64,000 bases of DNA from the NCBI GenBank assembly GCA_024137785.1, contig JAHRHZ010000034.1, positions 21,708,082-21,772,081 of the forward strand. The letters run 5' to 3'. Positions 29,676 to 30,879 of the stretch are shown piece after piece. Source of the stretch: Ginglymostoma cirratum (lineage: Eukaryota). Each line of letters opens with the position of its first letter. Positions within the stretch are counted from its first letter, which is position 1. The notes below the pieces were generated by a model. It did no database searches. It saw nothing but the letters and a program-made list of their open reading frames with translations, and was not told the DNA's origin. A program made the position numbers and the translations under genes.

Positions 29676-30096
29676 ACTATGGTGTGGTCTATTGAAGATT
29701 CTACACATGTTAGCCTAAAATCTCCACTAGCCAATTTTATCTCTCTGACATTGCTTCAGGATAGCTTTCTAAATCCTGCCCATCTTCAGTCCTTTCATTG
29801 ATGACCATCTCTTCATCATAAGATCAGAAGAAGAAATGTTTGTTGATGATTAGGGCTCGGATCCATTCATAACTCCTCAGATAATGAAGCAGCCCTTTCC
29901 TGCTTGCTGCAAGACCTGGCTAATATTCAGGCATGGGTTAGTCTATGGCAAGAATGTTGAAGAGTCAAAGAATCACAGAACTGGTATGGTACAGAAGGAG
30001 ATAAAAGGTACTGCAGATGCTGGAGGATCCGAGATAACAAGCATGGGGCTGGATGAACACAGCAGGTCAAGCAGCATCATAGGAGCAGGAAAACTT

Positions 30097-30124
30097 GACG
30101 TTTCGGGCCTAAACCCTTCATCAG
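30097..30124 (-). ncRNA. Minimal type I hammerhead ribozyme core
   Basis: CUGAUGA-A-GGGU(UUAG)GCCC-GAAA-CGUC on the minus strand, with all core nucleotides present. Confidence 0.75.
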
Positions 30125-30240
30125 AAATGGGGGAGGGGAAGAGGGTTCTGAAATAAATAGGGAGAGAGGGGGAGGCGGATAGATGGATGGATAGTAGGTT
30201 ATGTGGAACAATCCCTCTTCCGTACCTACACTGGCCCTAA

Positions 30241-30640
30241 NNNNNNNNNNNNNNNNNNNNNNNNNNNNNNNNNNNNNNNNNNNNNNNNNNNNNNNNNNNN
30301 NNNNNNNNNNNNNNNNNNNNNNNNNNNNNNNNNNNNNNNNNNNNNNNNNNNNNNNNNNNNNNNNNNNNNNNNNNNNNNNNNNNNNNNNNNNNNNNNNNNN
30401 NNNNNNNNNNNNNNNNNNNNNNNNNNNNNNNNNNNNNNNNNNNNNNNNNNNNNNNNNNNNNNNNNNNNNNNNNNNNNNNNNNNNNNNNNNNNNNNNNNNN
30501 NNNNNNNNNNNNNNNNNNNNNNNNNNNNNNNNNNNNNNNNNNNNNNNNNNNNNNNNNNNNNNNNNNNNNNNNNNNNNNNNNNNNNNNNNNNNNNNNNNNN
30601 NNNNNNNNNNNNNNNNNNNNNNNNNNNNNNNNNNNNNNNN
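30241..30640. other. Assembly gap (400 N)
   Basis: Run of N. Confidence 1.
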
Positions 30641-30678
30641 CCCTATTTATTTCAGAACCCTCTTCCCCTCCCCCATTT

Positions 30679-30706
30679 CTGATGAAGGGTTTAGGCCCGA
30701 AATGTC
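30679..30706 (+). ncRNA. Minimal hammerhead ribozyme core (one helix III change)
   Basis: ctgatgaagggtttaggcccgaaatgtc. Confidence 0.65.
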
Positions 30707-30879
30707 AAGTTTTCCTGCTCCTATGATGCTGCTTGACCTGCTGTGTTCATCCAGCCCCATGCTTGTTATCATGGTACAGAAGGAGACCTTTTAGCCCACC
30801 ATGCCTGCTCTAGCTCTTCAAATGAACATCACTGCCTCCCCATACGCTCGTGCACTATTTCTATCCAAATCACTTGCCA

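Follow-up and report, generated by a model that had tools for sequence, protein, structure and literature searches.

A target-site-duplicated insertion with inverted, hammerhead-bearing ends in a shark genome: probably a 5'-truncated Penelope-like element of the Neptune type

Introduction

A hammerhead motif in each of two inverted arms raises a simple question: is the DNA between them a young element that still gives rise to a self-cleaving RNA, or a dead copy in which the motifs are carried along? Such an arrangement is found between positions 30002 and 30770 of a 64,000-nt stretch of Ginglymostoma cirratum DNA, referred to here as the window. A preliminary description, made from the sequence alone, had proposed a young Penelope insertion with near-perfect inverted termini, each holding a minimal hammerhead ribozyme, and had seen in it a recently active shark lineage with a potentially functional self-cleaving RNA. 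Here we present an analysis of the structure of the insertion, its empty site in a relative, its age, the way it might have formed and the state of the two motifs.

Results

Anatomy of the insertion

Alignment of the inverted arms (30033-30162 against 30641-30770) gave matches at 129 of 130 positions, as first reported, the sole mismatch opposing 30100 to 30703. The perfect 16-bp target site duplication (TSD) of the preliminary description was likewise found, with 16/16 identity between the two copies listed in Table 1; this 16-mer occurs only twice in the window. The notion of near-perfect inverted termini holds for the arms but not for the ends as a whole, which are asymmetric: the left end has 31 extra nucleotides beyond the inverted match, and the left arm extends over 193 nt. 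Family contigs trace this arm inward to about 30183, and a reverse transcriptase (RT) remnant begins at 30194, where a single G is common to both copies and no palindrome is present. The order of the parts is thus TSD, inverted 3' end with tail, RT-truncated sense copy from 30194, a run of N, tail-less 3' pLTR up to 30770, and TSD. An inverted pLTR with an optional tail of 30-40 nt at one end, as present here, is a feature of Penelope-like elements (PLEs), in which one-sided tails of 30-40 bp are known (PMC8557442, PMC3846280, PMC11167929). In all probability, the locus is a 5'-truncated Neptune-type PLE with the layout inverted pLTR, tail and TSD.

Table 1. Features of the insertion (window coordinates)
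Feature	Position	Strand	Remarks
Left TSD copy, 16 bp	29986..30001	+	Identical to 30771-30786; single copy at the empty site of organism A
One-sided tail, 31 nt	30002..30032	-	Beyond the inverted match; corresponds to the terminus of family copy 19559-19681
Inverted 5'-truncated copy of the element 3' end (pLTR), 193 nt including tail	30002..30194	-	Family contigs; RT start at 30194
Minimal type I hammerhead, intact	30097..30124	-	Cleavage predicted at 30097/30096; helix I formed by 30125-30128 and 30093-30096
5' start of truncated sense copy, 15 codons of Neptune-type RT just before YIDD	30194..30240	+	Match to P0050 and P0101
N run, 400 nt, interior	30241..30640		Full copy would need about 1.1 kb or more
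Visible 3' pLTR of sense copy, without tail	30641..30770	+	Arm match
Second hammerhead, C15.2>U at 30703, palindrome broken	30679..30706	+	Pattern and arm alignment
Right TSD copy, 16 bp	30771..30786	+	Identical to 29986-30001; single copy at the empty site of organism A

The interior and the reverse transcriptase remnant

The span 30002..30770 stands as the bounds of the insertion, but it encloses 400 N, the sole N run in the window, so that 769 bp is not the known length of the element. Because the right arm starts at the very edge of this run, the 130 bp are the visible overlap only. From 30194, the plus strand translates VGYVEQSLFRTYTGP. Fourteen of its 15 residues are identical in P0050 (LOC125484857, Rhincodon typus; tblastn E 9e-4 in the window) and 13 of 13 in P0101 (LOC125456606, Stegostoma tigrinum); by these matches, a carpet shark is the likely host. 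Past 30240, family contigs enter the YIDD motif in three of four runs (at least 95, 73 and 28 contigs); before 30194, those of run X1 enter the preceding RT motif. The 15 codons, together with the contigs that reach YIDD, identify an RT of the PLE type.

P0050 continues for 378 residues past the matched stretch, so that a full interior would take up about 1.1 kb or more. This exceeds 400 nt; hence the N run is probably a placeholder, or else the copy is internally deleted. The element is probably about 1.5 kb long or longer. With the interior hidden by N, endonuclease, linker and true length have to be read from relatives. By motif, P0050, the closest relative, carries a GIY-YIG endonuclease, and a Cx2-5CxxC linker occurs in P0050 and in 59 of the 60 relatives having both YIDD and the endonuclease (EN) motif; the corresponding regions of the locus fall within the N run. 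A linker between RT and endonuclease marks Neptune and also Nematis elements (PMC8557442), and we infer by motif, as opposed to a tree, that P0050 and the locus are of the Neptune type. Pfam gave no match in the 26-aa frame of the remnant, nor in 112 of the 117 window frames of at least 75 aa; a protein search with the window frame returned nothing at E<=10, and a coral-type Neptune query did not find the 15-residue remnant in the window.

Empty site and abundance of the family

Contigs from four of 24 runs were compared with positions 28901-31900. In two of these four runs, representing two samples and two studies, contigs of organism A join 29985 directly to 30771 and retain a single copy of the 16-mer. 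Record 27 of run X7 (1363 nt) aligns with 29650-29985 over its positions 1-335 and with 30771-31748 over positions 336-1322; record 5 of run X1 has the same join. An empty site with one TSD copy shows that this is a true insertion and that the TSD was made when it occurred. Altogether, the RT remnant and the empty site bear out the original reading of a Penelope insertion with a TSD. The flanks of organism A differ from the window by 4.3-5.5%, which makes it a relative and not the source; since no run contains more than 0.22 of the sequence words, the source species appears to be absent from all of them. Run X13, from organism B, spans the right flank only and not the site; among the matches listed for X14, presumably an RNA run, no piece lies over the unique flanks.

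The element family, shared by organisms A, B and C, is very abundant throughout the four runs. Over the arms, depths add up to around 10^5-10^6, a value that is not a copy number, as compared with about 10-20 for the orthologous flank contigs, and about 99,000-134,000 contigs per DNA run fall on the 3-kb stretch, all repeats together. Among the variants listed from family contigs, none is a substitution inside the arms.

A possible route of integration

Both arms are antisense to the element RNA when read inward from the flanking 3' ends, and the tail of the left arm is absent from the right one. The left arm is therefore not a fold-back copy of the right-arm cDNA. On the strength of these sequence features, we lean slightly towards a double-priming route. 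The GIY-YIG endonuclease would place its nicks on the two strands at a distance of 16 nt, and a first-strand cDNA would be primed from either 3'-OH. The short cDNA would begin at the tail-end start site and stop after 193 nt; the long one would begin 31 nt further in and run back into the RT region. The two cDNAs would then be end-joined at 30194 over one shared base. The final bases of the left TSD (29998-30001) resemble the tail end of the family copy at 19559; from this likeness, seen in one copy only, primer and template may have paired over a few bases at the end of the tail. The anole PLE protein, for which a dimer is predicted, is able to cut both strands and to extend them, and it starts at two sites that delimit the tail (PMC11167929). 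Whether the scheme extends to shark Neptune elements at large, with a protein dimer nicking about 16 nt apart and making one cDNA from each of the start sites that bound the tail, is a tentative proposal on which we are nearly evenly divided. If true, this copy and others whose empty site has likewise been verified would be direct fossils of double target priming, and the huge shark family would allow the Penelope integration mechanism to be read from tail and TSD statistics.

A possible but rather less probable origin of the inverted arm is that one cDNA switched to an antisense template, either antisense RNA or a second cDNA, or primed itself. A switch of this kind has been proposed for inverted junctions with palindromes in a study that favours self-priming on an antisense template (PMC3846280). 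Organisms A and B contain many short fold-back junctions of the family (at least 15 joints listed), and the arms have common variants against the 19559 copy, both of which would fit. Against it, the 30194 junction lacks a palindrome, and a fold-back on a tail-less cDNA cannot supply the tail.

Age of the insertion

The arms and TSD copies show one difference in 146 compared bases (95% range 0.017-3.8%). This is below the expectation from the flank rate (P 0.010 and 0.003); hence, the insertion is younger than the split from organism A. Its age is about 15% of that split as a point value, with a range from less than 1% to about 85%. The one difference is a CpG to TpG change; CpG sites mutate faster, which would make the insertion younger. 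At the rate measured in another shark, the epaulette shark (7e-10 per base per generation; PMC10587355), the age comes to about 5 million generations, with a range of 0.1-27 million. The label "young" is thus justified relative to the split from organism A (P about 0.003-0.01), but 146 compared bases cannot show recent activity, nor do near-identical arms prove it in a slowly mutating shark genome. A recently active lineage is plausible.

Gene conversion or assembly could have homogenised the arms, in which case their near-identity would be partly an effect of the neighbouring gap and uninformative on age. The right arm does start at the N run, the family is huge, and such structures break short-read assemblies (PMC8557442). 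We consider this unlikely, inasmuch as the empty site agrees base for base with both junctions and the TSD, the arms are told apart by one CpG and by the tail, and the TSD copies are identical as well.

Sequence and fold of the hammerhead motifs

The two motifs were found where the preliminary description had placed them, one on each strand, and the left core is intact, with all boxes present. Both contain the CUGANGA, GAAA and UH boxes, the G10.1-C11.1 pair, an extra A after A9 and a 4-bp helix II. The loop-less helix III had been described as the palindrome ACGU; this applies to the left arm, the right one reading AUGU, which is not a palindrome. The single C>T change ascribed to the right core does exist, at 30703, but it lies at position 15.2 in helix III, outside the single-stranded catalytic boxes. 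Helix I, absent from the earlier account, is made of four weak pairs (U-A, U-A, U-G and A-U).

A covariance-model check did not bring out the motifs: Rfam returned eight weak matches (E<=10) over 25000-36000, with no hammerhead among them, and the motif regions of 51 nt show no folding advantage over shuffled sequences (z 0.21 and 0.61). The motif is therefore recognised by pattern and context, not by covariance model.

Prospects for ribozyme activity

Dimer cleavage calls for a second motif in the same orientation, and none is present in the visible sequence. As the two motifs lie on opposite strands and face outward, a cis dimer cannot form, and no single RNA carries both in sense. In a read-through transcript, the arms would pair with each other over 129-130 bp (-266 to -270 kcal/mol). 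The monomer favours a rod-like fold in which core and cleavage strand are paired to each other, at a predicted energy of -9.3 as against -4.0. The double-hammerhead fold reaches -6.3, compared with -28.8 for the best dimer fold, and weakens to -4.5 and -2.0 when the mutated copy takes part. These are nearest-neighbour energies that omit tertiary contacts and the help of proteins, and thus leave room for cleavage, including in trans. Were transcription to start inside the element and proceed outward, the RNA would include one motif but not the arm antisense to it, and might pair in trans with RNAs of other PLEs; this is an argument against inertness.

In published tests, metazoan minimal hammerheads had no activity as monomers and low activity as dimers (PMC4209133), and the anole PLE hammerhead cut only with protein, no RNA-seq reads ending at its site (PMC11167929).

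How the motif fares in other animals was assessed with a looser pattern, which detected at least 121 loci from other animals in metagenome contigs; the pattern fixes the core, so that core conservation cannot be read from it. The hammerhead pattern gave no match in viral contigs, and the exact shark pLTR pattern gave none in metagenome contigs. Among 114 distinct motifs (130 before removal of duplicates), pairing at the first and second positions of helix I is seen in 109 and 107, respectively, with swaps between families. Helix I covaries: counted over 35 distinct types, 75 of 105 pairs are formed, as compared with 50.6 on average in shuffles, none of 5000 attaining the observed level, with the caveat that types related to one another are not independent. 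Only 64 of the 114 copies form a fourth pair in helix II. On this covariation, selection appears to have acted on the motif class in the masters of other families; it is silent on the present copy.

Taken together, the data leave little to recommend the idea of a very recent insertion, made by a lineage active at present and giving rise to a working self-cleaving RNA from its termini; we hold it to be quite improbable. The intact left motif, the 129/130 and 16/16 identities, the empty site in organism A and the helix I covariation in related minimal motifs would speak for it. Against it stand the opposite strands, the 130-bp duplex and the damaged right copy; the single difference in 146, which allows 0.1-27 million generations; the sharing of the family by organisms A, B and C; and a published activity of minimal motifs that is nil in monomers and low in dimers (PMC4209133), or nil in the protein-free state (PMC11167929). 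The covariation, for its part, concerns masters of other families, with a fourth helix II pair that is often missing. The potentially functional self-cleaving RNA of the preliminary description is thus not upheld: no cis dimer can form, helix III of the right copy is damaged and published protein-free activity is little or none. A functional ribozyme at this locus is unlikely, and both motifs are likely inert passengers. They would have been copied because they lie in the pLTR; in the tandem RNA of a master element, they would work in dimeric form, probably together with the element protein. We are confident, short of certain, that they came along with the pLTR as passengers and that, being on opposite strands, they would be buried here in the read-through duplex.

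Related elements in and beyond the window

A single end of the family of the locus (86%), with tail, lies at 19559-19690. Its frame is open from helix II through the tail and closed in the arms of the locus; by analogy with the anole element, it may be the start of the open reading frame. A search for pLTR frames as the N-terminus found none among 171 proteins.

A non-autonomous DNA transposon (MITE) with long terminal inverted repeats, suggested by short length, inverted ends and a TSD, can be set aside as extremely improbable, given the 31-nt tail that makes the ends asymmetric, an interior starting with PLE RT and the single occurrence of the same end at 19559-19681. Terminal inverted repeats running symmetrically to both ends are absent, and the RT remnant excludes such a transposon unless the gap separates two insertions.

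Hammerhead cores in the older PLE ends of the window are decayed. An older fold-back end, from a second family whose helix II is longer, occupies 29170-29413 (inverted match 29218-29404, 80%); its core is decayed, and a candidate TSD (12/13) is found at 29170 and 29401. Further ends of this older family lie at 39231-39393, 4071-4154, 29483-29567 and 15363-15430, the first two being fold-backs; no TSD was found at 39231 or 29483. The decayed 3' half of a Neptune-type PLE (thumb, linker and endonuclease; 35% to P0050, E 3e-38) covers 50823-51970, with a decayed hammerhead-type end near 51870. The window also contains a LINE RT remnant at 46798-48390 (Pfam RVT_1, E 1e-33), presumably CR1-like, and inverted pairs of about 175 nt and 77-79% identity at 11724-13386 and 15483-16320.

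Outside the shark, 28 of the at least 121 motif loci in metagenome contigs match a PLE protein. One of them, L002, has a 595-codon frame with RT, CxxC linker and GIY-YIG, both Pfam hits being below the cut-offs; used as a query, its protein matched 94 proteins. At 424-3082, L002 presents a near-complete Neptune-type element between outward-facing hammerhead arms (130 nt, 88%), in the same layout as the shark locus. To judge from homologues, its host is probably a coral. No TSD was found around this element.

Discussion

As one locus, a dead copy of a very abundant family has little weight. What it does offer is an empty site resolved to the base, along with a TSD of 16 bp and a tail confined to one end. 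Together, these constrain PLE integration, a step left without validation in PMC11167929.

Comparison with known systems

A literature search that took in part of the supplement of PMC4209133 turned up no paper on hammerheads in shark PLEs as such, and in the one review of retrotransposon hammerheads that it listed, "shark" occurs only in the name of the ribozyme; the family may already be catalogued. A 2026 preprint (bioRxiv 10.64898/2026.07.22.740005) reports hammerhead retrozymes in one chondrichthyan genome. Non-LTR retrozymes (PMC7229834 and the same preprint) resemble the locus in their type I hammerhead and PLE-derived repeats. They are, however, head-to-tail non-coding tandem arrays, whereas the shark copy is head-to-head, single and provided with an RT remnant; with that remnant and no tandem array at the locus, a retrozyme was rejected.

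The near-identity of the RT codons ties the locus to the Rhincodon typus and Stegostoma tigrinum proteins P0050 and P0101, but only 15 codons are visible and this copy cannot encode a whole protein. As regards the motif, the minimal hammerheads of Cervera and De la Pena (2014, PMC4209133) have the same core boxes, a base between 9 and 10.1, the G10.1-C11.1 pair and a palindromic 15.2-16.2. They also have a helix I of 4-5 bp, a loop-less helix III and motif pairs 100-700 bp apart on opposite strands. Helix II is 7-8 bp in the Schistosoma families, as compared with 4 bp at the shark locus, where one copy bears C15.2U. PAc, the Poseidon element of Anolis carolinensis (Frangieh et al. 2024, PMC11167929), is alike in having a tail between two RT start sites and a hammerhead in the pLTR; it belongs to the Poseidon clade, as opposed to the Neptune type of the shark locus, and starts its open reading frame in the pLTR.

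The closest likeness in layout is to the complex insertions of endonuclease-bearing (EN+) PLEs (Craig et al. 2021, PMC8557442; Arkhipova et al. 2013, PMC3846280), in which an inverted truncated 5' copy, a tail at one end (31 nt here), an outer TSD and a break in the assembly are also encountered. In the rotifer examples, the TSD is 8-10 bp as opposed to 16 bp. The shark locus further differs in having no palindrome at the junction and no direct 5' pLTR, the latter because the copy is cut inside the RT. In conclusion, the architecture is already in print, as are a helix III lacking a loop, an additional base following A9 and the occurrence of motifs in pairs on opposite strands, and the locus is a further PLE copy.
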